Shown piece after piece: positions 13,717 through 45,559 of a stretch of 64,000 nucleotides of DNA. The notes under the pieces are model-generated. The model saw only the letters and a program-made list of their open reading frames with translations, searched no databases and was not told the origin of the DNA. Position 1 is the stretch's first letter, and each line of letters opens with the position of its first letter. Source of the DNA: an uncultured delta proteobacterium (GTDB lineage: Bacteria > Desulfobacterota > Binatia > UBA9968); the NCBI GenBank assembly GCA_963745035.1, contig CAVUVW010000026.1:32001-96000 (forward strand), written 5' to 3'. Position numbers and translations under genes: made by a program.

Positions 13717-13794
13717 GTCCCCGTCGTCTAGCTCGGCCCAGGACACCGGCCTTTCACGCCGATAACACGGGTTCAAATCCCGTCGGGGACGCCA
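13717..13794 (+). tRNA. tRNA-Glu(TTC), integration target
   Basis: Acceptor GTCCCCG/CGGGGAC, loop CTTTCAC, GGTTCAAATCC, CCA end. Confidence 0.96.
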
Positions 13795-13821
13795 AACAAT
13801 CAAGCACTTGCCGCTGATTCT

Positions 13822-14988
13822 TCACTCTCGGTTTTTTCTTGGGAGCAGTGTCGCGGAGAAACTTTGCAAAGCCGCTTTCAGGTCCGCCTTGGTGAGATTC
13901 TGATATTTTTTGTGATGACGCTACGCTTGAATGACCCGCAGCTAACATCGCGGCAGCGGTCGGCATGCCAGCGGTTGCCCAGCGAGAAATGCGGCAATGG
14001 CGCAGATCGTGGAAAATGAAGTCTTTGATTTTTGCTTCCCTGCACGCTTTGCGGAAGTGATATTCAAACTTCAACTTGTCCATCGGCTGACCGTCCATCG
14101 TTAGAACCGAGATCGCCGACATTCGGGAGCTCTGCGGCGCTCTGCCTGCAACTCCGCAATCAGCGCTTTCAGTTCGGGCGTGAAGACCGGGACTGCTTGC
14201 GGCGTCCCGGTTTTTCCGCGGCCGTTTTGTAGTTCAATGATTCCCTCGCGCAAATCGATTTCGCTCCAGGTCAGACGGAACAAATCCGAGCGGGACAACG
14301 CGGTTTCCCATGCGAGACAATGGCGTCTTCGAGCCACGTCGGGCATTTTTCCAGCAAGGTCGCGAAACTCTTTGTCGGTGAGCATCCGGTTCCGGTCGCT
14401 CTCTTTGTGCATCTCGAACTTCGTCACCTTGTGGACGAATCCCTTTGTCAGGGCGAAGCGCAGAAACTTTCGCAGCGTTCCGACTTCTTTGTTGATGGTC
14501 GTTTGTGAAACCACTTTCTCGGACTCTTCGCCGTGCTTGATGATTTTTTGCTTTGTTCGCTTTTCCCGATAGCCGATAACATCATCGTCACAGATTTGCG
14601 CGATTAGCTTTGAGCCGAAAAGCTTTTCCAGCGGCTTTAGGTGCCACGTCGAAACTGATTTCATTGACTCCGGGCATTGCGCAACGAACTTCGAGAACGT
14701 CATCCCCCTGGCGGTGCGCTTTTGCTTTATCTCATCGAAATCGACTTCATGGGAATTTTTCTTGTCAATGTCGATAGACCTTCTGAATAGGCTGCTTCTC
14801 ATTCTTCCCGAGCGCGAACTTCCGGCTGAACGTGTTGCCAGTCCGTGAATTGGCCGTAATAGCGCGTTCTCGGCTTTCCTGACGCCACGTAGCTGCGTCG
14901 AAACAAACGCGGGACGATATTCTCGTCCCCGTCGAAACGAATCCGTTCCGCCTTCTCCTTCATCGCTTTGCCCCTTTCCGTTGAGCAC
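13822..14988 (-). CDS. Tyrosine integrase of element 1 (several frameshifts; ends approximate)
   Basis: ETALSRSDLFRLTWSEIDL, FIFHDLRHCRISRW, AAGHSS; catalytic Tyr (HKKYQNL) lies in a shifted frame. Confidence 0.85.
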
Positions 14989-15012
14989 GCCTGTCTTGCT
15001 GCCCCTACCTAC

Positions 15013-15717
15013 TCACTTCAACGTTGCCGCCAACAAAATTTTTCGGTTGGCGTATTTGATTTCCTTCGCTAGCTCTCTTCGGTCGCGCTTTTCTTCGACT
15101 ATCTCCGCCAACAGCTTCGCGTCGAATCCGGGGAGCCGTGCCACAATCTCTGAGAACGGCAACCGTCGCCCTAGTGTTTGAAGCAGAAGCAGCTTGCCTT
15201 TGACTTCGTTCCAGCGCCTATTCGCCCGCGCTTGCTCGACTCGCTTCTGTGCTTGCGTGCTGTCGTGTTCCCGAAGACAAACATCGCCGCAGTAGCGCCT
15301 TTTTTGCTGGCGAGGAAAAAAGAACCGCGCACACTGCTTACAGCGCCTCAAGCGCCAAAACTGGTCGCGGTTGATGGCGTTGATGAGCGAGACAGCAACT
15401 CCGCTTTCCGGTCGCGAGGTGTTGTAAAGCATCTCGAACGAGCGGCGCTCAGAAGCGGGAGTCCACTCCACCACGTTCGCGTGCTTCTCGACGAACTCGG
15501 CGAGCGCGCCAGTGATTTTGCCCTGAGCGTGCGCGTCGAGAATCAGCTTTTGAATTTCTCCCGCTCGCTTTCGGCTCAAATAATTCAAGTAAAAGTCTAC
15601 CCGTCGCCCTTGTGAGCCGGACTTGCTGGCAAAGTCGGCGTTCATAAAATCGACGACGGTATTTAGGGCGCCTAGTTTTGTTTCTCGGTTCGTGCGCGCT
15701 TTCGTCATTGTTAACAA
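15013..15717 (-). CDS. Putative regulator with CGNR-like Zn finger
   Basis: LRRCKQCARFF.....RRYCGDVC; divergent from the replication operon. Confidence 0.6.
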   Translation of the reverse strand: MLTMTKARTNRETKLGALNTVVDFMNADFASKSGSQGRRVDFYLNYLSRKRAGEIQKLILDAHAQGKITGALAEFVEKHANVVEWTPASERRSFEMLYNTSRPESGVAVSLINAINRDQFWRLRRCKQCARFFFPRQQKRRYCGDVCLREHDSTQAQKRVEQARANRRWNEVKGKLLLLQTLGRRLPFSEIVARLPGFDAKLLAEIVEEKRDRRELAKEIKYANRKILLAATLK

Positions 15718-15824
15718 TCCGGAATTTGCTTCGCATCCGTCCTAGACTTTACCCGAAACATTGGACTAGTGTCAATACATTATGAAACACAAGCGAGCAT
15801 TAACGAAGGCGTCGCATGACGCAT

Positions 15825-15977
15825 ATGGCCATCCGAATGCCGCGAGGGTTGCGGGACTTGGTGAGAGCGGCGGCAGCGGCTCAGGAAATCAGTCAGAGCG
15901 ACTTCATGCGCCGAGCCGTCGAAGAGCGTGCGCAAAGCGTGCTCACGGCGAAAACTTTGCGGGCACCCGCAGCATGA
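15825..15977 (+). CDS. Small ribbon-helix-helix DNA-binding protein
   Basis: MAIRMPRGLRDLVRAAAAAQEISQSDFMRRAVEE; ATGA-coupled to the next gene; true start may be 15782. Confidence 0.6.
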   Translation: MAIRMPRGLRDLVRAAAAAQEISQSDFMRRAVEERAQSVLTAKTLRAPAA

Positions 15978-16571
15978 ATCCAGACCTCGTGGAAATCGTT
16001 CAGGCCGCTGGCGTTGCGCTCCGTCGGCAGGGCAAGGAATTTACCGGCCTGTGTCCGTTCCATGCGGACAAACATCCCAGCTTCGCCGTCAATCCCGACA
16101 AGCAGGTTTGGTTCTGCCACGCCTGCTCTGAGGGCGGCGACCCATTCGCTTTATCGAAAAATTTCATGGCGTCATGTTCAAGGAGGCGCTGGCGATTCTC
16201 GGAATCGACGGAGGGAAGAGGCCGCCGTGCTCGATGGCGCTCGATGCAAAGGCGCGAGAACTCGCAGGCTGGGTGAACGAACAGACGGCGAGGGCCGAAT
16301 ACCTGCTCCGCAAACTTGGCCAGAAAATTATCTCGCGCAGCAATGCGGAGATGCTGCCGTGCTCGACTCGTTCGAGCGCGAGTGGAGTGTGCTCGAAACT
16401 ATCGCCGAGGACCTGCAACACGAAGCGCACGCCGTCGAGATGTACGAGAGCCGCGAGGCCGTCGAGAGTGTCTTAGCAGAAGGTGTCGTTGAACCTTGGC
16501 CAGATTTCCCGCCGCTGACGCCTGAGTACCGGGCTTTCCTGCGTTCGCTCCCATACCCGGAGGTCCGATGA
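15974..16571 (+). CDS. CHC2 zinc-finger (primase N-terminal) protein, frameshifted
   Basis: GLCPFHADKHPSFAVNPDKQVWFCHAC..GGD. Confidence 0.8.
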
Positions 16572-17985
16572 GCCCCCAAACCGCGAAGCGCGCCATCGAA
16601 AAGGCAGAGCGCGCGCTTGCTGTGTTCCGTCCAAACGGATCCGCGACAAAAATCGAAGAGCCTCCGCACAACACGGACCTTGGAAGCGCGCAACGGTTCC
16701 GCCTGATGCATGGAGCTAACGTCCGCCATTCAACGCAACTCGGCTGGCTCATCTGGAACGGCAAGCGATGGGCGAGGGATACGACGCAGGAAATCGAGCG
16801 GCTGGCGCGTGAGACGGTGCGCGGCATCTATCGGGAAGCAGCGGACTGCCCGGATAAGGACGCCCGGCAATCCCTCGCAGAGTGGGCGGCGAAGTGTGAA
16901 TCGGTCCAGAAAATCAGCGCCATGCTGACGCTGGCGGAATCAGAGCCGGGAATCGCAGTCAATGCCGACATATTCGACAGGCACGAGTGGCTCATCAATC
17001 TCGCCAATGGAACGTTTGACGTCAAAGCCTGGAAGCTGCGGGACCATCAGCGCGGCGACTATCTCACAAAGATGATGCCCGTCGCATTTGACGACTAGCA
17101 GCCTCTGCCCCATGTGGGAAAAATTCGTGCTTGAGATTACCGGGGAAAATCTGGAGCTGTTCCGCTTCCTGCAAAAGGCGACCGGCTACTCCCTCATCGG
17201 CAGCACCCGCGACCAATGTTTCTTTCTCCTCTACGGCACAGGGTCAAACGGCAAATCGACTTACATCAAGACAATCAGCACCATGCTCGGCGACTATGCG
17301 GGCGCAACGCCGATGGAAAGCCTGCTCATCAAGCGCGGCGATGCTATCCGCAACGACGTTGCGCGGCTCGCCGGTCTGCGCTTCGTCTCGGCGGTCGAGA
17401 CCGAAGGCGGTCGAAGGCTCGCGGAGAGTCTCGTCAAGCAGCTCACCGGCGGCGACAAAATGACCGCGAGATTTTTGCATCATGAATTTTTCGAGTTCGA
17501 CCCGGCGTTCAAGCTTTGGCTCGCGGTGAATCACAAGCCGAAGATTGTCGGCACCGACAATGCCATCTGGCGGCGAGTGCGCCTGATTCCGTTCGAGGTG
17601 ACTATCTCGGACGCGGAGAAAGACCCGGACCTTGCCGAAAAACTCAAGGCGGAGCTGCCGGGGATTCTCAATTGGGCGCTTGAGGGACTGCAACGATGGC
17701 GACGCGAAGGACTCAAAGAGCCGGACGCGGTCAAGGCGGCGACGCGGGCCTACCGGAGCGAGATGGACGTTATCGGCAATTTTCTTGAGGACTGCTGCGA
17801 CACCGACGCGGAGGCGGAGGTCAACAAAGCGGCGCTCTACAAAGCTTATGCGGAGTGGGCGCACGAAGCGGGAGAGCGGACAGTCAGCAAGAACGACTTC
17901 GGGACAGCGATGCTGGAAGCGCGGGTTCACCGAAACGCGCAGCAAACGGGAGCGGTTTTGGGTCGGAGTGACCCTGCTGGACTAA
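16568..17985 (+). CDS. P4-family/D5-like primase-helicase (SF3), frameshifts near 17090 and 17920
   Basis: TDLGSAQRF, WLIWNGKRW, INLANG, LYGTGSNGKST, VKQLTGGD.MTARFL, NHKP...D.AIWRR. Confidence 0.9.
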
Positions 17986-17993
17986 GGGCAAAG

Positions 17994-18098
17994 GGTGACA
18001 CAGGTGACACAGGTGACACGGTTTTGGGGTTTTTTTCTATATACGCGCTCGCGTGAGAAAATATGAAAAACAGCGTCACCCTGTGTCACCGTGTCACC
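17994..18098. repeat. Iteron-type replication origin of element 1
   Basis: GGTGACAC at 17994, 18003, 18012; inverted (G/C)GTCACC-type copies at 18073, 18083, 18091; AT-rich spacer; directly after the helicase. Confidence 0.75.
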
Positions 18099-18146
18099 CG
18101 CAGCCAACAGTGCGGACGCCGGGATGCCATATAACAAGGTCGAGTC

Positions 18147-18419
18147 ATGAAGTGGTTATCCCCAGGCACGATCGCTGAGCTTTACGACATGTCGCCGAAG
18201 TCCGTGCACAGGATGATCGACCGTGGTGAGCTTCCGGCAGTGGTGTTTCCGAACGGAAAAAAGCGGGTGTCTGAGGAAGCGCTGGACAAACTGCTTCGAC
18301 GCGGTGCGCGCAAACAGAGACGCCCGCGCACCCTCGCCGACGAAGGGACCGAGAGCGGCGATTCCGTCGAGCACTCATCGGCCCTTCGGGCGAGTGAGCA
18401 CAAGCCGAAGTTCGCGTGA
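18147..18419 (+). CDS. Excisionase-like HTH protein
   Basis: WLSPGTIAELYDMSPKSVHRMIDRGELPAV. Confidence 0.75.
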   Translation: MKWLSPGTIAELYDMSPKSVHRMIDRGELPAVVFPNGKKRVSEEALDKLLRRGARKQRRPRTLADEGTESGDSVEHSSALRASEHKPKFA

Positions 18420-18425
18420 GAGCAG

Positions 18426-18936
18426 ATGAAAACTGAGACTGAGAATTTTGGGGAGCAGTCCGGGAGCAAAAACGCAACGCGCATGAGCGCCGCAGCAACG
18501 AAGCAAAAGCACCGGCGAGAGTATCGAAAGCACGGTGATGTTGCCCGGCAGAAGAAAGTTCGGAAGCACGGCTTCAACGCGATAGACGCACGAACGCGAC
18601 CGGGCAAGGCGGCAAGCGATTGGCGGCGGTATGCGTTCGAGCGGAAAGGCGGGCGAAGGCAATGTCCCGTTCACTTGAGAGAAAAAATCGAAAGCGCCGC
18701 GTTCTGCTTTGGCGAGCGCTGGAGCTGACGGGACTACATCATCGCGGACTGCAAAGAAGCGCGGCACTCCGCTGAATCGCAGGAGGGCGAAGCTTCCCGC
18801 GATAAACGAGCAGCACGATTCGCTGATGAGCCAGTGGCAGCGGATCAACGATGAACTCGAACTGGACAAGCGGCTTGGACCTGGCGCGGCGCTACATGGC
18901 CGAAGGGGGCAAGCGATAAGAAGTTTATCAGATTGA
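18426..18936 (+). CDS. TerS-like protein (frameshifted), homolog of 44895..45386
   Basis: KHG...AIDAR...KA...WR...GG shared with the element 2 gene; upstream of terL. Confidence 0.5.
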
Positions 18937-19563
18937 CGTCCGGCGCGGCTACGGCGTGACAACGAGCCAAGCCAGCCGCGCCAGAGCGTGAGCACTTACG
19001 AAATGCACGGCAAGCCGCAGGACCGAGCAGCCGTCATGGCGGAGAGCGTTAACGTCACGGAGATCGTGACGTTGCGAATCGGCGGGCGCTCTCTGCGCTA
19101 CAAGTACGAGCGATGGGGCAACGGGGGCGGGGCGCTCACCAGTGCAGCGGCAAAAGAACCAGTATTGACGATCAATACTGGTTTAGACGGGAGCACTGAA
19201 TGACTTGCAGATTTCAAGTTCAAATCGATTTGAAGTTGAAATTCGCCGCTGCCGTAACGTAACGCCGTAACGCGACCGTGACACTACCGGCGGGAGTTGA
19301 GCGATGAGATGCGCGAGGTCATGCGGCAGGAAGGCGCGGCACGGCTCCCGGATTTGCGAGACCTGCGCGGAGCGGCAAGTCGCGCGCGACGAAGAGAGAA
19401 ACCGCAGCGGCAAGCAGCGTAGTGAGAGCTGGAAGCGTTACGACCGCAGGCGAGGCCAAAGGTGAGCCACAAGCGCACCGGGATTGATTTAAACGGGATT
19501 AGCGGAACGGTGAAGGGTCCAGGTCCAACTGAGCCGCAGCGTTCGTTTTAGCCGTGTTGCAAC

Positions 19564-19806
19564 ATGGAAGAAGGGCATTCTCAACAGTGCGCGTCCCCGG
19601 TTTGCTCTGTCAGCTTCGAGCCGAGCGGGCCGAAGGTGAGGCCGAAGCAGTTCTGCTGTCAGCGGTGCGCGATTGAAGCGTCAATCATTCGCAGAGCGGC
19701 AAGACTGCTGGCGAAGCTGCCGGACGATGAAGCACTGAAAGCCTTACGAGAACGAGATGGAAAATGCCGTAACGAAATTCAATGTCCCGGAGTCGGAATT
19801 CGATGA
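19564..19806 (+). CDS. Small Zn-finger protein, homolog of ~44170..44400
   Basis: CASPVC...KQFCCQRC....IRRAARLLAK. Confidence 0.6.
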   Translation: MEEGHSQQCASPVCSVSFEPSGPKVRPKQFCCQRCAIEASIIRRAARLLAKLPDDEALKALRERDGKCRNEIQCPGVGIR

Positions 19807-20254: not shown

Positions 20255-21764
20255 ATGAGCGTCATTCAGTTCGCCGATGAGAACATGCCGTCGAACGAGC
20301 GCGGCAAGCCGTGGAACGTTGAGCCAGCATCAGCGCACGGTGCTTGCCCGCATGTACGCGCGGCACTACTCCATCCGGCTTGGAGCGAAACAAAAAGTCG
20401 GGAAAGACTTTTCTCGCCGCTGTCATTGCGATCTGGGAGGCGGTCACGAATCCGGACAGCGAGGTAGTGTGCTGCGCCAACGATGAAGAGCAGGCGGTGA
20501 GCCGGGTTTTCGCAACCGTCTGCGCGCTCATAAGGCACAACCCCGAGCTCGCGGCGTCGGCAACGGTGCTGGCAACGCAAATCAAGTTCACGAACGGCTC
20601 TGTGATTAAAGCTGTGAGCAGCGATTACAAGGGCCAAGCGGGAGGCCGGCAGCGGCTCACGATTTTTGACGAACTTTGGGCTTACGATTCGGAGCGTGCA
20701 ACGCGGCTCTTCGAGGAAATGACACCGCCTCCAACGGAAGAAGGCGCTTACATGCTGATTGTCTCCTATGCCGGATTCACTGGCGAAGGTGAATTGCTGG
20801 AAAATCTTTACAAGCGCGGACTCAAGGGCAGACGCGTTCACAAGTCGCTCGAGTGCTACCGGGCGCAAGGCCTGTTCATATTCTGGAGCCACAAGCCCCG
20901 CATGCCGTGGCAACTCGGAGCCGAGGGGCGCGCTACTACGAAGAGCAGAAGAAAATTCTCCGCCCCGGAACGTATCTCCGCCTGCATGAAAATCGTTGGG
21001 TGAGCAGCGAGGATAGATTCATCACCGATGAAGCATGGAGCGCTTGCGTTGACCCCGACCGAACGCCTGTTCTCTGCCGACAAGCGCCTTGATGTTTTTG
21101 TCGGCCTGGATCTTGGCATCAAGCACGATAGCACCGGGCGGGTTTGCGTCGCTTACGACCGGGCGGCGAACAAAGTTGTCATCGTCTCTCATCGGCTCTG
21201 GAGGCCGGGAAGGGGCCACAGCGTTTCTCTTGCCGATGTAGAGGCGGACTTGCTGGAGTTGAGAGAGAAGTTTCGCGTGAGGAAAATTCTCTGCGACCCG
21301 TGGCAGGCACTCGGCTTGATTGAGCGGCTCAAGCACGTCTTCGGCGATGCTATCGGGGAGTTCCCGCAGAGTGTCGGGAATTTGACCGCGTGCGGCGAGA
21401 CGCTCTACGACCTCATCCGCTCGCGCAACTTGGTCGAGCTATCCGGACCCGGACTTGAGAAGCCACGTGACGGCAGCGGTAGGCGTCGAGAGCGCGAGAG
21501 GCTTTCGGCTGTCGAAGGAAACGGCGAGCCGGAAAATTGACTTGTGCGTTGCTCTCTCAATGGCCTGCGTCGGCGCTTTGCAGAATTCCAAGCCGGTAGC
21601 AAACCCGAACGCGCAACCGATCGGCGTCGGTCGCGGCATTGGTCACGACTATACGCCGGGCGTTCGGCTCAACGTTGACGCAACCGTTCCCGGAGGCTCC
21701 ACTTCGGTCCCGCTCCGGACGAAGAGCGACCCGGCAAAGGAGGGGCTTGGCTGTACGGATTTAA
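20255..21764 (+). CDS. terL: Terminase large subunit of element 1 (several frameshifts; end approximate)
   Basis: KKSGKT Walker A, TIFDELW Walker B, SYAG coupling motif, FVGLDLGIKHD, ILCDPWQ, KIDLCVALSMA. Confidence 0.85.
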
Positions 21765-21857
21765 TTTTTACACCGAGAAAGAGTGAGGAGGCGATGAACG
21801 ATTTTACAATCACCATGATAGTCGAGTACGACAAAAATCATAGGAGGTATAAGGAGG

Positions 21858-22340
21858 ATGATGAAAAAAAACAAACCGAAGGCGCAACCAGTCGAAGCCG
21901 ACCCGCTCGCGAGAGCCGAGGCGTTGCTCAAGGAGTTCAAAGCCCAAGCTGACACCGCCATTCTGTCGGTCAATAGTGCTGTCGGCCGTGAGGCCCACAA
22001 TGCCGCAGTTGAGGAAGCCATACCTGTATGCCGTAGGTCCTACGCGTTTGGGTACGCGCTGTCACAAATAACAAGGAACACTCTTTACCGAGTCTCAGAC
22101 AAGCCATTAAGAGAACTGAAAATCCAATCCCGCTCGATAATGCTCCCACCAGCCGCATTGCCGGATGAGGCCCTCGAAGTTCTGGAAGCGCTCAAGACCA
22201 CAATGCCGCCGCCAAAAGTATTCGAGGGCGAGGCGGAATATCAGCAATGGCTCAAAGACAACGGAATGCACGAGGTTATCGAAGAGGACGAATACCGATC
22301 GCAAACTGCGCAGCGGAGCAAATTTCCGAGCACGGACTAA
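21858..22340 (+). CDS. Hypothetical protein
   Basis: 160-aa ORF after AGGAGG. Confidence 0.55.
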   Translation: MMKKNKPKAQPVEADPLARAEALLKEFKAQADTAILSVNSAVGREAHNAAVEEAIPVCRRSYAFGYALSQITRNTLYRVSDKPLRELKIQSRSIMLPPAALPDEALEVLEALKTTMPPPKVFEGEAEYQQWLKDNGMHEVIEEDEYRSQTAQRSKFPSTD

Positions 22341-22980: not shown

Positions 22981-24471
22981 CTAAAGCGGAGGCTGCTTTG
23001 GCGTCACCGTATCGGTCAGCGTCTTTAAGTATGACACGAGCGCTGCCTCTTCGTTTGCAGTGAGCCCAAGGTTTCCCAGCAGGCCGAAATTCCCAGCTTG
23101 ATTAGGGGTATCAAACTCTGGAGCCGGCCAGCAGTTTCGCGACATTGCCTGGGCTGCCGACGTACCCGCTGGGCAAGCCAAGGGATCCCGTAACAACGTT
23201 GCCGTATTGTAGAAATGCACGACTTGCTCCAGTGACTTGAAGTAGCCGTTGTGCATATAGGACTTCGGAAACACGTTGCCGCGGCGCTTGTCTACATTGC
23301 GCAGCGTCGGAGTTTTGACATGCCCAGCAAATGGGGTCGCGTTAGGGTTAGCAGAATTGAATACAGCATCAGGATCCGTATGGCCGAGCAATCCGGTGTC
23401 CGGATCGTTCCGATCGAAGTTTTCTATTTCGAAATTGGCCGGCAACCCGATGTGGTGATACGCAAAATCGGAATAAATCTGATTTAGTTCATTACCAACG
23501 GAAGCGGCGCCATGGCTGTTGTGGCAGGCGGCGCAGCCTGCATTCTTTGGGACGAGGGCACCCTGACCATTGTCGACAAGTCTGTTCAGCTTTGAATCAT
23601 TCTTGCCGTGAAATAGGTCACGTCCTAGATTCTCCAGGTTGGTTAAGTTGGGGAGAGGGAAAACTCCGCCTTTCCTGATTCCCTGATCGCGTTTGGAGCT
23701 GAACGAGTTGACTTCATCGGAATGCTGCCAGGCTGCAATCGCCAGAGCGATGCGCTTAAAGCTGATGGCCACATTGGCTGCGCCACAGTCGATCGCCTCG
23801 CCCCAAGCTTTTGTAAAAAGCTCGGCGTACTTCGCCGACTGGACATGCCGACAGACAGCTCCGGCCCCGGGCAGTCCACCATCGTTTCCGTCAGGAACAT
23901 TCTGCTCGACATCGTTAGGAAACGGCCCTAGCGCTTGGTCCGCGACCGGCCCGATGAAACCACCGTAGGCCGACTTTTGTGCCTCGGTATCGAAGATGTC
24001 AACACCGACATGCGCCGTTGCTCCTGTTCCCGTGACGTTCGGGAGAGCAATCAAGGCAGTCGCGTTGCCTTCGGCGCGACCGTCCCAAAAAACGCCGCCA
24101 AAACACGCAAATCCTAAACCTTGCCTACAAGAGTCGACGGGGTCGGGGACATTCGGGTTGGTCGCAGGCCGGGTGCCAAACGGCGGACTGAAGCTTGCGT
24201 ACGCATTGCTGGGCGGCTTACGTCCGCCGACGGTGTGAGGGTTGGCGCCCGGTATGGCCACACCTTTCTTGTTGATGGCGGCGACTCCGCCAGTCCAGCC
24301 ATTGTCCGGTACGTGACAGGTTGAACACGACTGGCGCGGCGGATTAGAAATATTGTCGAAGAAAACACGCTTGCCTAAATCTTGTAGGGCCGGGATGTCC
24401 TGCGCCATGGCAGACCCATTCAACAGCAGTAACAACACACCAGCAGATACGCCGAGTCTCGCGCTGTTCAT
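22981..24471 (-). CDS. Di-heme cytochrome c peroxidase/MauG family protein (cargo)
   Basis: Signal peptide, CSTCH and CAACH heme motifs, FWDGRA, KTPTLRNV, YMHNGYFKSL. Confidence 0.9.
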   Translation of the reverse strand: MNSARLGVSAGVLLLLLNGSAMAQDIPALQDLGKRVFFDNISNPPRQSCSTCHVPDNGWTGGVAAINKKGVAIPGANPHTVGGRKPPSNAYASFSPPFGTRPATNPNVPDPVDSCRQGLGFACFGGVFWDGRAEGNATALIALPNVTGTGATAHVGVDIFDTEAQKSAYGGFIGPVADQALGPFPNDVEQNVPDGNDGGLPGAGAVCRHVQSAKYAELFTKAWGEAIDCGAANVAISFKRIALAIAAWQHSDEVNSFSSKRDQGIRKGGVFPLPNLTNLENLGRDLFHGKNDSKLNRLVDNGQGALVPKNAGCAACHNSHGAASVGNELNQIYSDFAYHHIGLPANFEIENFDRNDPDTGLLGHTDPDAVFNSANPNATPFAGHVKTPTLRNVDKRRGNVFPKSYMHNGYFKSLEQVVHFYNTATLLRDPLACPAGTSAAQAMSRNCWPAPEFDTPNQAGNFGLLGNLGLTANEEAALVSYLKTLTDTVTPKQPPL

Positions 24472-24746
24472 ATTCTCTCTCCCTTCTTTGCGACTCTAGC
24501 CTTTGATAAAGACCGAAACAAGCGCGATTCGATCTGTCAGAGATAAAATCTATTCGATTTTTAAGCGGGATTTTTGACCGACAAGTAATGGCAAAGCTAA
24601 ATGGTCTTCACGCCTGAAATGAACTCAGAACACCTGGGGTGACGCCTTGTCTCAGGAGCATGGCTCAGCATCGGTCCGTTGCCATTGTTTTGAAGACTCA
24701 CGCACAACCCAGGGCTATCGTTCGAGGCCGGAGAGTGGATCGCGGG

Positions 24747-25453: not shown

Positions 25454-25959
25454 TACGCGCCGATTAGCAAAAATCACGCGCGGGTGTCAAGAGATGCGGA
25501 AATTATCACAAACCCGACAATAGGTAGCTAAAGAATTTGGCGGGGAACCAGAGAATTGTTGAAAGACTATCGCGAAATTGTCGCGAACATAATGTTTTCG
25601 TAAAGAGTCAAACCTGACATCGCGTATAGCAGCGCCGCTTCTAGTTTATATCGACAACGACAACAGGAGGGCGCGCGTCATGGAAACCTTTTGCAAAGCC
25701 GTCCTAGCCACCCTTACATTCCTGCATTCAATGGCTACGATGTACGGCGGCGTTAGCTGGTGGGCGGAGCGGGGAGCTACGATCGGCCGGCGAACCTACG
25801 AGACGGAGCTAAAATCCAAGCCGTGCTCACTGACTTCGTCAGTCGGACATTTGTCAAATTCAGACGGGCCGCACACCGTCAACAGTTGATCATTTAGGCT
25901 TTGGCCAGGTGCCATGAAAATCATGTCGGCGAGTTGATATTCAATCTCTCTTGCCTCAT

Positions 25960-29305: not shown

Positions 29306-29306
29306 G

Positions 29307-32211: not shown

Positions 32212-32415
32212 TTACGCCGCGTGCGGTCCTTCCGAGTCGTTTACAAAACAGTCCACACCCAAGGTCAGCTTCAACCGCTCCCGCTCTTCTGGCGTCGGGT
32301 CGCGATGGCCCTGCACTATTCGACTCAATTTTGATTCCTCGATGCGTAGCGGCTTAGCCGCGCGGATCTGAGAACCAAACCGACGAATCAAAGCCATCTT
32401 CAGTTCCACGTTCAT
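32212..32415 (-). CDS. Cro-like HTH protein
   Basis: FGSQIRAAKPLRIEESKLSRIVQGHRDPT; first gene of the leftward operon. Confidence 0.7.
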   Translation of the reverse strand: MNVELKMALIRRFGSQIRAAKPLRIEESKLSRIVQGHRDPTPEERERLKLTLGVDCFVNDSEGPHAA

Positions 32416-32525
32416 TTGGCTCTACCTCTCTTGGGTCAACAACAATTCTGCTATTGTATTTCTCATATGTCCCGCGTATTGTCTATAAATGCTTGGGACA
32501 GAGCATAGGAGGGATTTTTCAAGAA

Positions 32526-37621: not shown

Positions 37622-37674
37622 CTCACGGTCACCGCACCTGCCGCACATCGTAGCCGGGGTTAATGCCCTTGAAG

Positions 37675-39069: not shown

Positions 39070-39699
39070 TCAAAGATACTGGGCTAACTTTGCCAATCCC
39101 TTGATGAGAATCGGATGATTCCCGAGCCCGGTGCGCTCAAGCTCTTTTGTTAGCCGCGCGACTTCTTCGGGTGTGCCGAATGATTCGAGCACCTCGCGCG
39201 CCTGGGATAGCGTCTCATCACTGTTCGCGCCGCCGAACTCCGGATCGTTTTGAAATTCCTGTTTCCAGCTCATCACTTCGTCGTAACGCTTCTCGCCGAT
39301 CTCTTGGTATTCGGCAACCTGCCGGGCAGAGTCTCCAATGGCGCGCAAATGCAGATCGGCAAAGCGCTGCATCTGCTCAGCCGTGAAACCGTGCTCACGG
39401 CCAAGCTTGGTGAAGTCGCGCATCAAACCGTCGTCGACAATGGCGCCGTCGGGAAGCTTCAAATCGTAGAGATCCGCGGCGGCGGCATCCTCGGCCAGCT
39501 TATTAAGGTAATTTTTGCCGTCGGCCTTGTCGCTCGGCTCAGCCTTCGGCGCTTCCTTCGTGTTTTCCTTGGCCGGTTCCTTCCCGTACAGCACTTCCGC
39601 TAAAGGCCGCTCTGCGCTGCCTGACTTGCTTGCCGGCGCGCTCTCCGTGGTCTGCGACGGATACAGTACATCCGCCGCGCTTCGTTCTGATGTTTCCAT
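39070..39699 (-). CDS. Podovirus-type (BPP-1/epsilon15-like) capsid scaffold-like protein
   Basis: Low-complexity N-terminus, YDLKLPDG, EQMQRFAD, W...DPEFGG, FGTP, TGLGNHP; AGGAGG RBS. Confidence 0.65.
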   Translation of the reverse strand: METSERSAADVLYPSQTTESAPASKSGSAERPLAEVLYGKEPAKENTKEAPKAEPSDKADGKNYLNKLAEDAAAADLYDLKLPDGAIVDDGLMRDFTKLGREHGFTAEQMQRFADLHLRAIGDSARQVAEYQEIGEKRYDEVMSWKQEFQNDPEFGGANSDETLSQAREVLESFGTPEEVARLTKELERTGLGNHPILIKGLAKLAQYL

Positions 39700-39953
39700 G
39701 CCTACCTCCTCGCCGGATCGTTTATCGCGTTCGGCAGCGCGCAATTCGAGTAACAGAATGACGGAAAAGTCGACGAGCCTTGGCTCCTGAACCTCGTCAT
39801 CAGACAATCGTCCTTATGCTTGCAACCCTCCGGTGGCTGCGTTCGCGGCTGCACGCCCGCAATAATTTCATCGTCACGCTTGTGCTGCTCCCGGTAGATT
39901 TCTGATTGATCCATGTTTCGTTTTCTCCTTCTTGGTTGTGGGTTAGTAATCGG

Positions 39954-40391
39954 TCACATAGCCACGAAATTTTTCGGGTAAGTGTGTGATAGCTGCGTAT
40001 CAGCCGCGATCCTCGCCGAGACCTTTCCGGCGGTCATCGGACCGGTAGTCACCGTGTAAACCAACCCGAGATAGCGCTGGATCGTACGCTCTGGAACTTG
40101 AAGCACGATTGGCGTTCGGCCTACGGCTAAATCGGCGAGAGTGAGCGTCACCCGAGCCAGAAGCGTCGGCGTATCCAGAGACTCATTATCGGCCGTCGCT
40201 GTGGCTATCTGGAGTGTTGCCGCACCGTCGGCGGTGAAGCTCTCGGTCACGATGACCACAACATCTAGTATATCGACCGCGGACCCGCGAATATTCGGTG
40301 CGACGACACCGAGGTCGATCACGTTGGTAGAGTCCCGCGTCACGGTGATTGCCGCGTTTTCATCGAAGCTATTTTGTTTGTCGAAGATCAT
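39954..40391 (-). CDS. Bbp16-like capsid cement/decoration protein
   Basis: MIFDKQNSF....AIT...DSTNVIDLG...V.VTESF...GAATL...RYLGLVYTVTTGPMTAGKVSA. Confidence 0.75.
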   Translation of the reverse strand: MIFDKQNSFDENAAITVTRDSTNVIDLGVVAPNIRGSAVDILDVVVIVTESFTADGAATLQIATATADNESLDTPTLLARVTLTLADLAVGRTPIVLQVPERTIQRYLGLVYTVTTGPMTAGKVSARIAADTQLSHTYPKNFVAM

Positions 40392-41092
40392 TTTTCCCTC
40401 TTTGGTTGTGGGTTAATAGGCGGTCGCTTCGGTTTGATACTTAGCTATGCAATCACCACCCTTCGCGATACGGGTCGTATTCGCTGACAACGTTTTCCAA
40501 TTCCCGCACCCGGGTAAAAGCCACGATTTTTGCTGGCTCAGGCGGCCGTAAACCGCACACCCAAAAGCAGTACGGGTCCATCCCAACGCGACGGTTAACT
40601 ACTCTGCCCATCGGGCACTTCTCGGCTTTGCACTCAGCCATTGAGTCTCCGCTCTTGCTCCTTGGCTCTTTCAAACGGGTCGTAGTCGGTTTGGACTTTC
40701 CCGACACCGCTAAGCCCGTGATGGTGTTGGGTGTAGAGCTGGCGGAGATACCACTCGATTGTGTTCTCAATATCCAGCGGGTTCTCCGGCGTCGGCTTCC
40801 AGATTTTATGGCTCACCAGCCACAACTTATCCGCCTCTTTATCCCACGCCACGGCAACCACGGCTGCGCAGTCATGCTTGATGCCGGCATCCACGCCGAC
40901 GAAAAGCCCGGTTGTCTTGCCGCGCTCGATTGCGGCACAGCACGCCATCGCCAGCGCAACAATGGCGTCAATTTTCTTCGATGCCTTTTCCTTCGCGATC
41001 CTCCAGCCGCGGGGATGCTCGACGGCAATCGTGCTTAGCGCCTGGCTCCGTAGATCATCGGCCGGATACATCACCAGATTGCGACCGTTGAG

Positions 41093-42519
41093 ACTTGTAT
41101 GATGGATGTCGGCTCTGAACCGGGAGTGCTCTGCTACAATGCCCGAAACGCCAAAGGCATTGTGCAAGGAGGCACTCAGCATGGGACACAAAGCGTTTAT
41201 ACCACAAGAGTACGATGTGTTTGCGGGCTTGGACGTAGATAAAAGAAGCATCTCGGTGACCTTTAGCAACCATCAGCAAGGATTTGTCCGATCGTTGCAC
41301 ATGCCGTACAGCGTGGAGCACTTGCTCAAGCACGTACGCAAGCATTATCCCGATCAGAAGGTTGCGTTTGTCTATGAAGCTGGACCGACGGGGTATGGAT
41401 TGTATGATGGGCTTTCGGCCCAGGGGTATAACTGCTTGGTGGCGGCACCTTCGATGATCCCTCGAGCTCCCGGGCAAAGAGTCAAAACCAATCGCCTCGA
41501 TAGCCGAGGGTTGTCGGAGAGCTTGCGCGGTGGACAGTTGAAGAGCATTCACGTGCCTTCGCCCATTTATCGAGAGCTTCGCCATCTCACTCAGCTGCGC
41601 GACACCTTGGTCAGTGAAGTGGCGGGGATGAAGCAGCGGATTCAATCGCTGTTGCTGTTTGAGGGGATCGCTTTCCCAGCGGCTCCCGCTGGGAGCCGCT
41701 GGTCTTTGAAAGTGAAGAGCCAACTGAGGAAACTTCAGTGCTCTAAGAGCATGCGCTTTAAACTCGATCAGTTGCTCGACAACGTGGAGTTTTCTGAGAA
41801 GCAGGTCGTGAAAGTGACCAAAGAGATTCGCAAGCTCTGTCAGAACGATCCTGAACTGGCGCAGTGCATGAAGTATATGATGAGCGTTTGTGGCATCGGC
41901 TGGATTGTGGCCAGTCAGCTCCTGGCTCGTATCGGTGATTGGCGGGAACTTAAAAACGTGCGTCAGCTGGCAGGGTTTTTGGGGCTGGTTCCGAGTGAGG
42001 ACTCTACGGGAGAGAAAACCGATCGAGGCTCGATCACCCGCACGGGACATGGCCGCCTGAGGAGTAAACTCATCCAAGCGGCCTGGTCGGCGATTCGCCA
42101 AGATGGTGAACTTCGGGAGTTTTACAGTTCGGTATGCCGCAGACACCCGCGGCATATGGGTCCGCGAGTCGCCATCGTCGCCGTGGCGCGCAAGCTCAGC
42201 ACCCGGATTGCTGCGGTGTTGATGGAACAACGGCCCTATGTGATGAGACAAAAAGTTCATTCAGCTCCTTTGACCCAAGAGGAGACATCGCCCCAGGGAA
42301 CGGCTCGACGACTTTGAGAACCGGGAGAAACAAACTCCTGACGGTTCGATCCTTGAGACAGAGATCCCGGGGCTTTGTGCCTTAGAGAGGGGCGCATTTT
42401 AAGTCAGTGTGACGGCCGGGTGCCGTGCCACGCATAGCAGCAAGTCTCTCTTGGCCGGGAAAGAAGAAGGGATAAACTAAGAGCATTCGCGGTGTAGCGA
42501 CTTGACATCCACATAGCAG
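41093..42519 (+). mobile_element. IS110-family, IS1111-type insertion sequence
   Basis: AG core at both junctions, subterminal IR TGGATGTC/GACATCCA, ~200-bp non-coding region downstream of the transposase. Confidence 0.9.
41181..42317 (+). CDS. IS110-family transposase/recombinase
   Basis: FAGLDVDK, YEAGPTG, KTNRLDS (DEDD-like), GLVPSEDSTG conserved serine. Confidence 0.95.
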   Translation: MGHKAFIPQEYDVFAGLDVDKRSISVTFSNHQQGFVRSLHMPYSVEHLLKHVRKHYPDQKVAFVYEAGPTGYGLYDGLSAQGYNCLVAAPSMIPRAPGQRVKTNRLDSRGLSESLRGGQLKSIHVPSPIYRELRHLTQLRDTLVSEVAGMKQRIQSLLLFEGIAFPAAPAGSRWSLKVKSQLRKLQCSKSMRFKLDQLLDNVEFSEKQVVKVTKEIRKLCQNDPELAQCMKYMMSVCGIGWIVASQLLARIGDWRELKNVRQLAGFLGLVPSEDSTGEKTDRGSITRTGHGRLRSKLIQAAWSAIRQDGELREFYSSVCRRHPRHMGPRVAIVAVARKLSTRIAAVLMEQRPYVMRQKVHSAPLTQEETSPQGTARRL

Positions 42520-43563
42520 CAAGTCGAAGAGAGTTTGCCCCATGAGCGTGCAGTTCGCTTGCGTCTGGGGAAATTCCTTGATCGGGATGCTGGCGTTCTT
42601 GAGCGTCGTGATCGATCTGTGCAGCTGATAGGGGTCGGCCACAATCTGCTGCACGGGGCCCGTAAAGGCCGGCAGCGGGGTACGAACGATGCACGGATCC
42701 CAAAGACTGGCGGAAATAAAAATCTCTTCCGCGCTCGCCCACTTGTTTTCGTGAAGACGGAGATACGTACCGGGGCGGAGAACGCGCTTCTGGCTCGCGT
42801 AGTAAGCTTCAGTCTGCCACGGCATGCGCGGCTCATGGTCCCAGTAGGCAAACAGCCGGGCTTCGCGATTGGCATAGATCGGCAAATCGGGATGAAGCCG
42901 CTCGCCTTGTCCCTCCGGGTGCTCATCGGGGCTCACCACCTGCTTGTAAAGATCCATGAGGAGCTCGCTCTCGCCCTCAAAGCCGGCATAGGTCCGTGAT
43001 GAACCGGATGGAATTTCTGCGGGTCGGCACCGGGGTTAACTCTTCCCATAGCCGCCGGCTGGATTCAGAGACATAGGCCCAAAGCTCGTCATAACTCACA
43101 AAGCCATGATTCGAGCCCGCGGCGCCGGCATAGTCGCCGCTGATCGCCGTCACTGTCGTACCGTTGGCCAGATAAATCGTCTTGCTCTGGACCTCGGCCT
43201 CGCGGCGCAATTCGGGATGGTGCTGAATGATGCCTTCCATCGTGCGATAGACGCGCGCCAGTGTTTGCTCAAGGTCATTTGCCAGGATTAGTATTTCGTT
43301 CGGCGCTTCCTGAGTGAATCCCCAGCCAAGCGTTATGGCGCCATTCAGCGTGGTTTTGCCGCTCTTCTTGATGCAGGAATAAAGAATCGTATCCCACGGT
43401 AGGCGGCCGTCCTGATCGAAGGCGAAGGCGAGACGGAGAACCTCCCGCTGGTGATCGCTGAGCCCGAAGGGCTGGCCAAGCTCGTTTTTCTTAACCAGCT
43501 TGTCGATAAATGTCATCGGGTGAATCAGTTTGGTCATGGCCCTTCGATCCTGTGATATAATCA

Positions 43564-44166
43564 GTGGTCACTGTGTTTGATTCTTGCCTGCATTGCGGCA
43601 GTCATAGCTTCGAGCGCTCTCATCGCAGCCGCTGGGAACGTTTGTTGAGCACCCCCATAAATGCACGCCTGTTTAGCTGCCGTGATTGCAACTCCCGCTA
43701 TTGGGTAAGTCCAAACGGCATTTGGGGACGTGGCTTTCTTCATCTTCTTTGGTTGCGGTTCATGCGCTGGTTCTCAGTTCTCTTGTGGATGGCTGTTATT
43801 TTCGTTCTTTCGACGGAACATTTTTCTTCGGCACGAACCCCTATCCCAAAGGAGCTCATGGAATTGGGCTTCGATCAATTTTTGGTTCGCAAAGTTGCTC
43901 ATTGGACCGAATACTTCATACTTGGATTCCTGTTAATGCGCGCTCTCAGCGCGAACTCCGATAAGCTCATATTCAAACGCCACATCGTTTTAAGCGTGAT
44001 CGTCGCTGCTGTTTATGCAGTGACCGATGAGTGGCATCAGTCGTTCGTCCCAAATCGGGACGCTAAAATGAGCGATGTCGCCCTCGACGCTGTGGGAGCT
44101 TGTTGCGGTACATGGTTATGGTCGCGGGTGCGAACCCTTTGTTGGATGAGTTGGATAATTCGATGA
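43564..44166 (+). CDS. VanZ-family membrane protein with N-terminal Zn ribbon
   Basis: CLHCGS...CRDC; VRKVAHWTEYFILG, YAVTDEWHQSFVPNR...DVALD. Confidence 0.85.
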   Translation: MVTVFDSCLHCGSHSFERSHRSRWERLLSTPINARLFSCRDCNSRYWVSPNGIWGRGFLHLLWLRFMRWFSVLLWMAVIFVLSTEHFSSARTPIPKELMELGFDQFLVRKVAHWTEYFILGFLLMRALSANSDKLIFKRHIVLSVIVAAVYAVTDEWHQSFVPNRDAKMSDVALDAVGACCGTWLWSRVRTLCWMSWIIR

Positions 44167-44169
44167 AAT

Positions 44170-44400
44170 TCATACTTCATCCAGCAAGGCATGAAACCTG
44201 ATGATGCCCACCTTGGCGAGCAGTGCCTTTGCCCTCTTCAAAGCGTAACCGTCCATCCGGCAGTGATCAGAGCAATAGCGTTTGCCGCGCTGTGATTTGA
44301 TCGTGATGGGCTTAGCGCACAACGGGTTCGCGCAGCGTTCAGGATTGGCGTTATTGGTAGCCGTTAACGGCTCATTCTCGCATTCTCCGGGCTCGGTAGG
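44170..44400 (-). CDS. Small Zn-finger protein (start uncertain)
   Basis: RCANPLCAKPI...KRYCSDHCRMDGYALKRAKALLAK, homolog of 19564..19806. Confidence 0.6.
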   Translation of the reverse strand, partial: PTEPGECENEPLTATNNANPERCANPLCAKPITIKSQRGKRYCSDHCRMDGYALKRAKALLAKVGIIRFHALLDEV

Positions 44401-44894
44401 GGTGAGCCTTCACTCTCAAAGGTGCGAGTTGTTAACGCCTTCATTGGTCTTTCAGTTGCTACCTCCTAGTAGCGTGACTCTGAGAGACATGGCTATGGGC
44501 GACTCAAATGTCCCAGACAGTGCGCTATCGGAAACCAAAGGGCACTCGATTCTCGCGAGTTTACCCAGATCTCTTCCAAAGCACGGGCGGAAATTGCGCT
44601 TCTCAAAAAAACTGCGGTGCTGTGTGAATCGTGCGGTTGTGTCTATGGGGATTGCGGCGATGAGACAGTTTGCTTGGAACGGTTGCCAGTAGCCGGACAG
44701 TCCTAAACGGATTACCGCGAGGTGGGCCGTGAGCACGAAAAATGTTCTGGATTCGGTACTACTGCTTCTTGTCGCATCCGCAATGATGTTTCTCTGGTGC
44801 CGGAGCGACCCTCGCGCGCCGCACAGGGACGAAAGTTTCTTAGCGTCTCTAGCTCGCATGCGCTGATCAAAGCGACTCCGACGGGTTAGCGCGG

Positions 44895-45386
44895 TCATTG
44901 GCGGGTGTCGGCTTGGGGCTGCTCGGTATCGCCGTTGAGAAGGTCGGTAACGGTTTTCACTTTGTGCCGGCGCTCAAGGCCGAGCATGTTGAGATACTTG
45001 GCGAGTCCATCGGCTAGCTGTTGGCGCTGAATGACCACAGGCATGATGGTTTTTGCCTTCCTGCGTCCGACGATCAGCGTGTCTTGGGTGAGCAGCCAAC
45101 CGTCTATACTATCGAGCAGAAACTTGGACTTGCAGGCTAAATCGATGATGGCGTGCTGCTGGGTTGAGAGATTCTCTTGGCCGCCAAGATCGGCGATTAA
45201 TTCCAGCCGCCACCGCTTAAGCGCCTTAGCCACGGCAGAGCGGCCGTCGATGGCGCGCTTACCAAGTACTAAGACTGCTCTTTTAAGCGTGTGGAAGCCG
45301 TGCTTTTCGGCGTAGCGGTTTCTTTTTGGTGCCGGGTAAATCGGGGTGCCGCCATCGCCTATGCCACAAGGTTTCGTGGGTTCCAT
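44895..45386 (-). CDS. TerS-like protein
   Basis: NRYAEKHG, AIDGRSA.AK....WR.ELIADLGG..NLS.QQ...I, L..LGLERR; upstream of terL. Confidence 0.55.
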   Translation of the reverse strand: MEPTKPCGIGDGGTPIYPAPKRNRYAEKHGFHTLKRAVLVLGKRAIDGRSAVAKALKRWRLELIADLGGQENLSTQQHAIIDLACKSKFLLDSIDGWLLTQDTLIVGRRKAKTIMPVVIQRQQLADGLAKYLNMLGLERRHKVKTVTDLLNGDTEQPQADTRQ

Positions 45387-45529
45387 AAAGTCGGGCTATT
45401 CAGGATCACTTCTCGAAAACTTCACGATAGATGATGCACAAAGTCGAAACTTAGCCAACTTTGCGCTCCCTGAGTTTGTAATAATCTCGGATAGTTAGAA
45501 GATGTTGGAGATTGTTGGAAGATTGTTGA

Positions 45530-45559
45530 ACGGGTTCAAATCCCGTCGGGGACGCCAAA
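45530..45559 (+). repeat. att site: 30-bp copy of the tRNA-Glu 3' end
   Basis: ACGGGTTCAAATCCCGTCGGGGACGCCAAA; preceded by tandem GA(T)TGTTG repeats. Confidence 0.9.

Follow-up and report, generated by a model that had tools for sequence, protein, structure and literature searches.

Can a mobile element discard portal, capsid and tail genes and still keep a complete DNA-packaging motor of its own? The question is raised by a window of 64,000 nucleotides (positions 32001-96000 of contig CAVUVW010000026.1, here C26) from an uncultured delta proteobacterium of the Binatia, taken from a metagenome-type assembly (genome of 7.4 Mb, 28 contigs, 92.6% complete, 5.8% contamination). An earlier, sequence-only reading of this window had described two related satellite-like islands that encode a large terminase subunit (TerL) and a protein resembling the small subunit (TerS-like) but no portal, major capsid or tail, and had proposed a possibly undescribed class of satellites. 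We consider it reasonably probable that the region from 13.7 to 64 kb arose by successive integrations at one tRNA-Glu attachment (att) site, and that the two islands, A and B, are dead copies of a family of small terminase-bearing islands.

The 52 nucleotides around the 3' end of the tRNA-Glu gene (13749-13800) are repeated at 28184-28235 with 98% identity; the repeat at 45512-45563 is limited to a shorter core. The sequence is present once more beyond the window, approximately 2.9 kb from its end, at C26:98939-98964. Within the window there are exactly three copies of the 25-nt core, where 100 shuffles lead to an expectation of zero. An integrase gene or fragment lies directly to the right of each of the first three copies, and these copies with their adjoining integrases therefore define a tandem array of three islands at one tRNA-Glu att site: island A (13749 to 28184; 14,435 bp, or 14.4 kb), island B (28184 to 45512; 17,328 bp, or 17.3 kb) and a third, island C (45512 to approximately window coordinate 66939, or ~C26:98964; ~21 kb). 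The span 13749..45559 assigned to the two elements by the sequence-only reading coincides with positions of these repeats. We are highly confident that the region consists of tandem, att-delimited islands containing pseudogenes.

We scanned 202 stop-to-stop six-frame open reading frames (ORFs) of at least 75 amino acids (aa) from 12.5-47.5 kb against Pfam, a 94-ORF subset of these against PHROGs and 28 of them against NCBIfam. tRNA genes were called with ARAGORN, and changes of frame were traced by tblastn with intact homologues as queries. Pfam and PHROGs matches bear out the presence of integrase, primase-helicase and TerL genes in both islands (Table 1). Both also contain the predicted module of TerS-like gene, CAxPxC Zn-ribbon gene and TerL gene, with detectable homology between the copies: identity is 41-46% for TerL, 34% for the TerS-like proteins (E 0.002), 27% for the Zn-ribbon proteins (E 1e-5) and 28% for the integrases (E 3e-7). 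Judged by these comparisons, the terminase and integrase modules of A and B are distant relatives, weakly but detectably related.

The replicons of the two islands are non-homologous, as had been claimed: island A combines Zn_ribbon_DnaG, D5_N and DUF5906/Pox_D5 domains, and island B has a Prim-Pol/AAA_25 protein. The iterons proposed at the same time correspond to three short direct repeats at the 3' end of each replication gene; in island A, the three copies of GGTGACACA occupy 17994-18020, two of them exact and the third with one mismatch. A divergent Zn-finger protein is likewise present in both islands, that of A being related to the C-terminal part of the NinG-like protein of B (28%, E 4e-5). 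Its designation as CGNR-like did not stand, as no Pfam match supports the label, and the island A protein has no match in Pfam, PHROGs or NCBIfam.

No portal, major capsid or tail family was found among the 202 ORFs searched with Pfam or the 94-ORF subset searched with PHROGs, and neither library identified a head-tail adaptor or connector in A or B. Neither the PF04860 portal nor the PF05065 capsid family was found in the whole 92.6%-complete genome, although divergent portals might escape these searches. The lack of head genes thus holds for these families but not for accessory ones, because island B encodes homologues of the capsid cement protein Bbp16 and of a phrog_458 'protease'. Reading leftwards from 45.4 kb on the minus strand, island B contains the TerS-like gene, the Zn-ribbon gene, an antisense VanZ gene, the TerL gene split by IS110, the Bbp16 homologue, an 80-aa ORF and the phrog_458 homologue. 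Bbp16 is described in the available text of PMC3863775 as a jellyroll cement protein of the Bordetella phage BPP-1 capsid that is essential for particle production. The phrog_458 homologue has no Pfam match; its nearest atlas clusters are viral and labelled protease, and the nearest Pfam-bearing cluster has a T7 capsid-assembly family in 31% of its members, a connection that we treat as a lead only.

Tabulation of homologous loci places both islands in a wider family. A search with the TerL of a further copy on contig C6 of the same genome returned 1,370 database proteins, the closest of them 670-690 aa long (the fullest name among these being 'phage terminase large subunit-like'), and 58 loci in species-representative genomes. 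The hosts include metagenome-assembled genomes of Binatia or 'delta proteobacterium', Acidobacteriota, Nitrospira, Planctomycetota, Chloroflexota, Verrucomicrobiia and Alphaproteobacteria. ORF clustering identified as recurring neighbours a tyrosine integrase, a P4-type or PrimPol primase, a few small genes and a 125-230-aa gene directly upstream of TerL, in the conserved order integrase, primase, TerS-like, TerL. No conserved gene was found downstream of TerL in the clustered genomic loci. Flanking direct repeats (26-59 nt) were found around TerL in 15 loci, in most cases at a tRNA gene; the segments that they delimit measure 7.6-16.7 kb.

The near-intact model for island B is L004, a locus in the same genus (G003:C32) with tRNA-Arg at one end and, at a distance of 12,722 bp, a 33-nt repeat at the other. 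Its genes are, in order, TerS-like, Zn-ribbon, a 707-aa TerL, a 282-aa unknown, a split ligase, NinG-like, MerR, a 641-aa PrimPol-AAA_25 protein, HTH_17 and a split integrase. Beside this terminase island lies a 2.6-kb insertion (L004 6093-8722) with a second copy of the tRNA-Arg 5' part, seen as 52-nt repeats that start at 6093 and 8671; it carries one 512-aa gene with a choice-of-anchor Q domain.

The outcome that the sequence-only reading had feared, namely that homologous loci would usually include portal, capsid and tail genes and so be decayed prophages, did not materialise: the loci are mostly small, tRNA-integrated islands with integrase, primase and TerS-like genes and without a portal. 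We applied an annotation-free size criterion, a same-strand ORF of at least 400 aa starting no more than 2.5 kb after TerL. Such an ORF was present in 9 of the 48 genomic loci with enough sequence, versus 53 of 56 loci from IMG/VR. Of the nine, L020 has a clear portal (PF04860 1.4e-20) and L012 is a phage-like locus; three others are large serine recombinases, and the rest comprise a methylase/transposase, a DnaB-like helicase and unknowns. A portal-sized, portal-like gene is kept in only 2 of the 48 loci. A and B very probably belong to this family of portal-less, TerL-bearing islands.

Of 56 genomic TerLs, at least 42 consist of one ORF with 440 aa or more. The island TerLs belong to PF03354, and homologues also have the PF20441 nuclease domain. 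Across 27 TerLs of the island B type, the G-K-T of Walker A and one nuclease Asp are invariant, and the preceding K-K-S, the E and W of the DELW motif and two further Asp residues are nearly so. This conservation argues that the predicted ATPase and nuclease activities are under selection where the gene is intact. TerLs of this type reach 670-707 aa owing to a conserved C-terminal region of approximately 200 aa (residues 485-707 of the L004 protein, 11138-11806; homologues P0003-P0023), which has no Pfam or PHROGs match and is frameshifted in the C6 copy. Its AF2 model, built from a 10-row alignment, has low confidence (pLDDT 42.8); its order of elements, beta-beta-beta-alpha-beta-alpha, would be compatible with an RNase H-like fold. 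Two sets of candidate relatives of this extension were rejected: apparent stand-alone homologues are truncated gene calls that start inside the TerL nuclease domain, and viral proteins of ~620 aa have no BLAST link to it, their grouping with TerL being a clustering artefact of reading-frame fusions at a few loci.

For the island B TerS-like protein, the databases contain 88 homologues, each named 'hypothetical' and lacking a Pfam assignment. Searches with the family in Pfam, PHROGs and NCBIfam, and by sequence profile in the PDB, gave no match. An AF2 model of the island B protein (31-row alignment, pLDDT 73) is all-helical with four long helices. VIA-align ranked the HK97 small terminase highest (6z6e_C, Z 8.9; 8pop_A, Z 8.8; 89 residues superposed at a root-mean-square deviation of 3.0-3.2), the next unrelated structure scoring 7.5, and BFVD models named 'terminase small subunit' match with probability 0.84-0.93 (E not significant). 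A second TerS-like family gave only chance-level matches to the PDB, and the profile-profile probability of 0.2 between the two families leaves a relation not shown. Because of its fixed place directly upstream of TerL and the HK97 small terminase as top structural match, the island TerS-like gene is likely, not proven, to encode a small terminase.

Several results weigh against the view that such islands live as satellites packaging themselves with their own terminase. The first is decay, which the sequence-only reading had overlooked together with the capsid-accessory genes of island B: the large mobile-element genes are broken in both islands. Frameshifts interrupt both integrases, both primases and both TerLs when traced with intact homologues (break points at ~14095, 17076, 20960-21440, 29020, 30787, 31263 and 42994). 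In TerL A, homology extends over 20392-21592 and can be followed only through three or more frame changes; there is a stop at 21001-21003, and the conserved LHENRW motif is out of frame relative to the flanking ORFs. TerL B lacks the 230-aa C-terminal extension.

The breaks could also be assembly or consensus errors in a mixed population, the islands being really intact. A metagenome-type assembly with 28 contigs and 5.8% contamination, in which mobile multi-copy regions are error-prone, lends this some credit, as does the density of homopolymers of at least six nucleotides, which in the islands is 4-5 times that of the left flank. However, the break points examined lie outside long homopolymers, and the IS110 insertion, the loss of the TerL B 3' part and the truncated ligase are not indel errors. 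Stop-free frames of at least 250 aa cover ~0.75 of the genome versus 0.2-0.4 of C26:48-104 kb, so the assembly is not frameshift-ridden overall, and to the left of the tRNAs the host genes show no damage. Short contigs from public runs agree with parts of B at 0 differences (none checked across a break). From breaks outside long homopolymers, normal long-ORF coverage of the genome and an intact flank we therefore conclude that the decay is genuine, leaving a slight chance of consensus error, and we consider it very improbable that the islands are really intact.

Judging from their sequences, both window islands are pseudogenised fossils of a system that no longer works here. Further B-type cassettes in this genome, on C6, C13 and C7 and as a short fragment on C20, are all damaged to some degree. 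Within the genus, 4 of 24 sampled genomes have matches, and a full-length TerL is present at 2 of about a dozen places, the window genome included (G003:C32, 707 aa; G024:C410, 691 aa).

The small-terminase assignment and the gene content supply further counterarguments. A Z of 8.9 is within the chance range for helical proteins, and Foldseek found no PDB or BFVD match to the TerS-like model at E ≤0.001 (E above 1). With its Bbp16 and phrog_458 homologues near TerL, island B is, by homology, not free of capsid-related genes. The contigs of four public runs over 13000-32999 contain no att-to-att joint, a result that is neutral on excision since these contigs are short and of low depth, leave island A almost uncovered and do not make rare forms visible; 20 public runs hold parts of 27000-30000, as contigs.

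Phage relatives of the islands point in the same direction. Head-related pieces follow TerL in 11 of ~50 genomic loci (Table 1), which suggests that the islands may be deletion products. PHROGs searches of 130 further same-strand ORFs downstream of TerL in 46 loci gave no major capsid family, except for protease-capsid fusion PHROGs that match over the protease part. Many proteins of 250-360 aa after TerL have no family in Pfam or PHROGs and could be divergent capsid proteins; they are the main gap in the claim that the islands have no capsid. A search of IMG/VR with the single L004 TerL returned no relative, and an alignment-based scan kept 80 of 144 relatives (TerL identity 30-54%). The closest viral TerLs (L063-L065, 53-54% identity) lie in a full head module in the order helicase, small gene, TerL, 682-724-aa portal-MuF fusion, S78 protease, 530-aa capsid protein and head-tail adaptor, which is the layout of a cf-PICI (capsid-forming phage-inducible chromosomal island) or small phage. 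Most other IMG/VR loci (L067-L138), from uncultured phages, have TerL followed by a ~620-aa portal-like protein (weak SPP1_portal, E 0.0025), a ~300-aa protein and a polyvalent protein of 2,000-2,350 aa with an ART-PolyVal ADP-ribosyltransferase domain.

A FastTree phylogeny of 101 TerLs, with long branches flagged in its output, placed every genomic island TerL, together with the two TerLs of the window, in a single 49-row clade (support 95), which also includes the portal-bearing L063, L064, L105 and L020. TerL B groups with L004 and L005 (support 100), with L063 and L064 as sister to that subgroup. TerL A is a long branch within a 39-row subclade (support 96), a position that comes from a quick FastTree tree only. 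A portal-less state that dominates a deep clade whose nearest relatives bear portals fits loss of head genes followed by persistence. On this sequence evidence, the islands likely descend from capsid-forming elements by deletion.

Descent by deletion could go further, in that A, B and most of their relatives might have no lifestyle of their own and be remnants of cf-PICIs or small HK97-like prophages on their way out. The pseudogenisation of both window copies and of most copies in the genus speaks for this, as do the portal, protease, capsid and adaptor genes that follow the same TerL in the nearest viral relatives. The head-module leftovers in 11 of ~50 loci, including split portals in L021 and L056, also fit, and in the reference island L004 itself the ligase and the integrase are both split. 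Independent decay, however, would not be expected to leave TerL open over 500-700 aa with its catalytic residues kept, in at least 42 of 56 loci from several phyla at 40-80% identity. Nor would it be expected to keep att-to-att distances within limits as narrow as the 7.6-16.7 kb of 15 loci, or to produce repeatedly a gene order that closes with TerS-like and TerL, and the rarity of portal-sized, portal-like genes (2 of 48 loci) also counts against deletion remnants. We therefore regard the absence of an independent lifestyle as rather unlikely, although it is the strongest competitor to a persisting family of terminase-bearing islands.

Alternatively, the terminase may have been kept for another role, either interference with phage packaging in defence or competition, or resolution of concatemers from island replication. 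No portal or capsid partner was found in the islands, PF04860 and PF05065 being missing genome-wide, and B-type TerLs have a conserved extension of ~200 aa without a Pfam or PHROGs match. Satellites that redirect or compete for phage packaging are known from the available text of PMC10085698 and PMC10690885, and that of PMC11417361 describes a satellite that manipulates the phage packaging motor. Against such a role, the ATPase and nuclease motifs are both conserved and a TerS-like partner is always adjacent, which amounts to a full packaging set and is more than interference needs. We judge this alternative improbable.

Comparison with known satellites places the islands between described types. 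As far as the available text of PMC10085698 and PMC10690885 describes them, classical PICIs contain an integrase, a regulator, a primase-replicase and terS, to which some add a gene for capsid morphogenesis, whereas cf-PICIs are defined by terL together with portal, capsid, protease and connectors. The same sources give a median PICI size of 9.5 kb (de Sousa et al. 2023, PMC10085698, SatelliteFinder model) and state that P4 uses the helper terminase, with a mention of Sid (PMC10690885). The islands studied here resemble classical PICIs in being small and att-flanked (within a range of ~7-20 kb), with the integrase beside the left att, an AlpA-type regulator (HTH_17, 18135-18416), a primase-replicase and a terS-like gene towards the opposite end, and in having no tail genes; the replication genes here are broken. 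They differ in that A and B carry a full-size HK97-type TerL and B a Bbp16 homologue, and in their hosts, which are soil lineages rather than Enterobacteria or Firmicutes. With cf-PICIs, as presented in the available part of 10.1101/2022.09.08.507074, they share their own TerS-like and HK97-type TerL genes. In contrast to cf-PICIs, searches by family and size found no portal, major capsid or adaptor/connector in A, B or ~46 of 48 related genomic loci, while accessory pieces (cement, protease/scaffold-like) remain in some islands as a partial likeness.

Island A resembles P4 in its P4/D5-type primase-helicase and tRNA-site integrase, whereas island B, with PrimPol/AAA_25, does not, and the TerL of both sets them apart from P4. 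P4 itself is without a terminase and uses that of its helper via cos; its Psu is a decoration protein and its Sid an external scaffold. Pfam and PHROGs gave no match in A or B to the genes for capsid size and transactivation (Sid, Psu, Delta), with no dedicated profiles run. By analogy, the cement-like and scaffold-like genes of island B would be functional counterparts of Psu and Sid. The packaging genes themselves are HK97-like in the ATPase and nuclease families of TerL and in the best superposition of the TerS-like model (6z6e / 8pop), and unlike HK97 in the absence of a sequence match for TerS-like and in the extra C-terminal region of B-type TerLs. By gene content, then, the TerL islands fit the PICI frame with TerL added, and fall outside cf-PICIs on portal and connectors (and on capsid by family search). 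A literature search that covered main texts outside most subscription journals found no description of satellites with TerS and TerL but without portal or capsid.

These features suggest how an intact member might work. It would consist of a tyrosine integrase, an excisionase/AlpA-like helix-turn-helix protein, an exchangeable primase-helicase with iterons, and a cassette of TerS-like, Zn-ribbon and HK97-type TerL, without portal, major capsid or tail. A helper phage would trigger excision at the tRNA att site, followed by replication from the iterons. The island TerS would recognise the island's own packaging site, and the island TerL would dock on the helper portal and fill proheads made by the helper. 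Accessory head genes in some members, such as the cement homologue and the scaffold/protease-like gene of B, may remodel or stabilise capsids as Sid and Psu do for P4. Whether the family consists of such helper-dependent satellites packaging with their own terminase is, in our estimate, evenly balanced.

Table 1. Coordinates of features in and around the three islands (window numbering), followed by head-related genes downstream of TerL in related genomic loci.
Feature	Position or locus	Strand	Basis or remark
tRNA-Lys(ttt)	13637-13712	+	ARAGORN
tRNA-Glu(ttc), integration target	13717-13794	+	ARAGORN
att copy 1, 3' part of tRNA-Glu, left end of island A	13749..13800	+	
A: tyrosine integrase pseudogene, two frames (13757-14233, 14104-15012)	13757..15012	-	PF00589 in both pieces; tblastn frames -2 then -1
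A: Zn-finger protein (CxxC...C..C), 242 aa, divergent from primase	15016..15741	-	sequence comparison
A: P4/D5-type primase-helicase pseudogene, at least three reading frames	15770..18053	+	Zn_ribbon_DnaG 1.7e-19, D5_N 2e-27, DUF5906/Pox_D5; frames 2 then 3
A: iteron-like repeats at primase 3' end, GGTGACACA x3 and GTCACCCGT x2.9	17994..18100		
A: HTH_17 / excisionase-AlpA-like regulator	18135..18416	+	PF12728 2.9e-10; phrog_66
A: TerS-like gene remnant	18420..18725	+	tblastn with L004 TerS-like, 37% over 59 aa, E 7e-6; 34% to island B copy
A: small Zn-ribbon protein, CAxPxC type	19552..19803	+	sequence comparison
A: HK97-type TerL pseudogene, Walker A KKSGKT, Walker B DELW	20323..21949	+	PF03354, phrog_9
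A: unexplained ORF of 160-172 aa after TerL (21858..22340 in the sequence-only reading)	21822..22337	+	
A: MauG/MbnH-like di-haem cytochrome c peroxidase, intact, 496 aa, cargo	22984..24495	-	PF03150 8e-23
A: LigD-type ATP-dependent DNA ligase, N-terminally truncated	25938..26690	+	
att copy 2, junction of islands A and B	28184..28235	+	
B: tyrosine integrase pseudogene, two frames	28192..29371	-	PF00589 5.9e-18 and Phage_int_SAM_3, in different frames
B: ATTCGTGTCCC x3, all exact, just beyond helicase 3' end	29996..30124		
B: PrimPol-AAA_25 primase-helicase pseudogene, frames -3, -1, -3	30018..31973	-	Pfam; tblastn with intact 641-aa L004 homologue
B: NinG-like / Zn-finger protein, divergent from PrimPol	32358..33443	+	PF05766 1e-4, below cut-off; homologue in L004
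B: phrog_458 'protease' homologue	39073..39813	-	PHROGs, 5e-27
B: BPP-1 capsid cement protein Bbp16 homologue	39957..40412	-	PF21190 3.1e-23; phrog_427
B: TerL 3' fragments (L004 TerL residues ~314-371 and 421-475, out of order)	40733..41101	-	
B: IS110-family transposase inserted in TerL	41103..42314	+	PF02371 1.7e-21, PF01548
B: TerL 5' part (residues 11-430), frameshift ~42994	42469..43567	-	PHROGs, tblastn
B: VanZ-family gene, antisense, between Zn-ribbon gene and TerL	43561..44163	+	PF04892 4.5e-15; NF037970 3.6e-26
B: small Zn-ribbon protein (CANPLC...YCSDHC)	44173..44409	-	sequence comparison
B: TerS-like protein (KHG...AIDGR), open ORF, adjoins TerL module	44898..45395	-	
att copy 3, right end of island B and left end of third island	45512..45563	+	
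Third island: integrase fragment (truncated)	45591..46268	-	
Cement + protease	L002 (C13), after TerL		
S78 protease	L010, L036, after TerL		
ClpP-like protease	L042, after TerL		
Mu-F	L034, after TerL		
Neck1	L017, L019 only, after TerL		
Portal or portal fragments	L020, L021, L056, after TerL		split in L021, L056
Baseplate piece	L060, after TerL		very distant

The remaining genes of the array are mostly small ORFs or cargo. The MauG/MbnH-like peroxidase is the sole long undamaged gene in island A and may be cargo still under selection. For the ORF after TerL A (21858-22337), the sole match is to DNA_Packaging_2 and is below threshold (22 bits, cut-off 27.5); PHROGs, NCBIfam and the protein atlas gave none, and no result identified it as the capsid gene that the sequence-only reading had considered. 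Ligases of the LigD-type class of island A were also found in the related islands L004, L007 and L044. A VanZ gene occupies the same place as in island B in the C6 and C7 copies (L001 9021-9227; L003 8758-9093), and a VanZ fragment is present in island A at 24958-25151; VanZ looks like a recurring cargo of TerL islands.

The small ORFs of island B at 35142-38949 belong to multi-copy families. A 286-nt segment is duplicated there at 89% identity (35656-35941 and 37629-37914), and the 172-aa ORF at 38434-38949 has approximately 16 more relatives on seven contigs of the genome (27-93% identity) and no family match. The ORFs at 36678-38949 were rejected as a candidate terminase of island B, being members of these unrelated small-ORF families. 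Island C encodes a cNMP-binding/FHA protein, an FkbM methyltransferase, an OmpA-domain protein, DUF3568 and an insertion sequence with a DDE transposase; no terminase was seen in it, only cargo-type genes up to the window end. Downstream of the island TerL in two related loci (L032 13139-14771; L003 10745-11197), we found a ParB-methyltransferase and a phrog_83 small terminase (E 3.6e-52 in L032), which may represent a second, different satellite-like element in tandem.

For the window itself, these results mean that the region is a tRNA-Glu hotspot occupied by three decayed islands, and that its terminase, primase and integrase genes should not be annotated as functional. The undescribed class proposed by the sequence-only reading gains a family of portal-less TerL islands to which it can be attached and loses its examples in the window, whose copies are pseudogenised and, in B, include capsid-accessory genes. 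At the level of the class, the idea of satellites with their own terminase is plausible and is favoured by the table of homologous loci that the sequence-only reading had called for. In its fullest form, which we advance tentatively and with slightly less than even confidence, soil bacteria of several phyla would host an undescribed class of 8-17 kb satellites that have a complete terminase without portal or capsid and parasitise helpers at the docking of motor and prohead. Some lineages, that of B among them, would add cement- and scaffold-like genes with which to reshape the stolen capsid. The class would be intermediate between PICIs and cf-PICIs, and the window would record two independent invasions of tRNA-Glu by distant members with swapped replicons.

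Satellites known from the sources available to us either borrow the helper terminase, sometimes re-aimed by their own TerS or by Rpp, or bring a whole head together with its terminase, as cf-PICIs do. If the proposal is true, an element that brings only the motor would represent a third satellite strategy. A foreign TerL would then work on the portal of another phage, which bears on packaging specificity and on the stepwise origin of satellites from phages by loss. It would also extend satellites to little-studied soil lineages, where they would be recognisable by a genomic signature of integrase, primase, TerS-like, TerL and island end.

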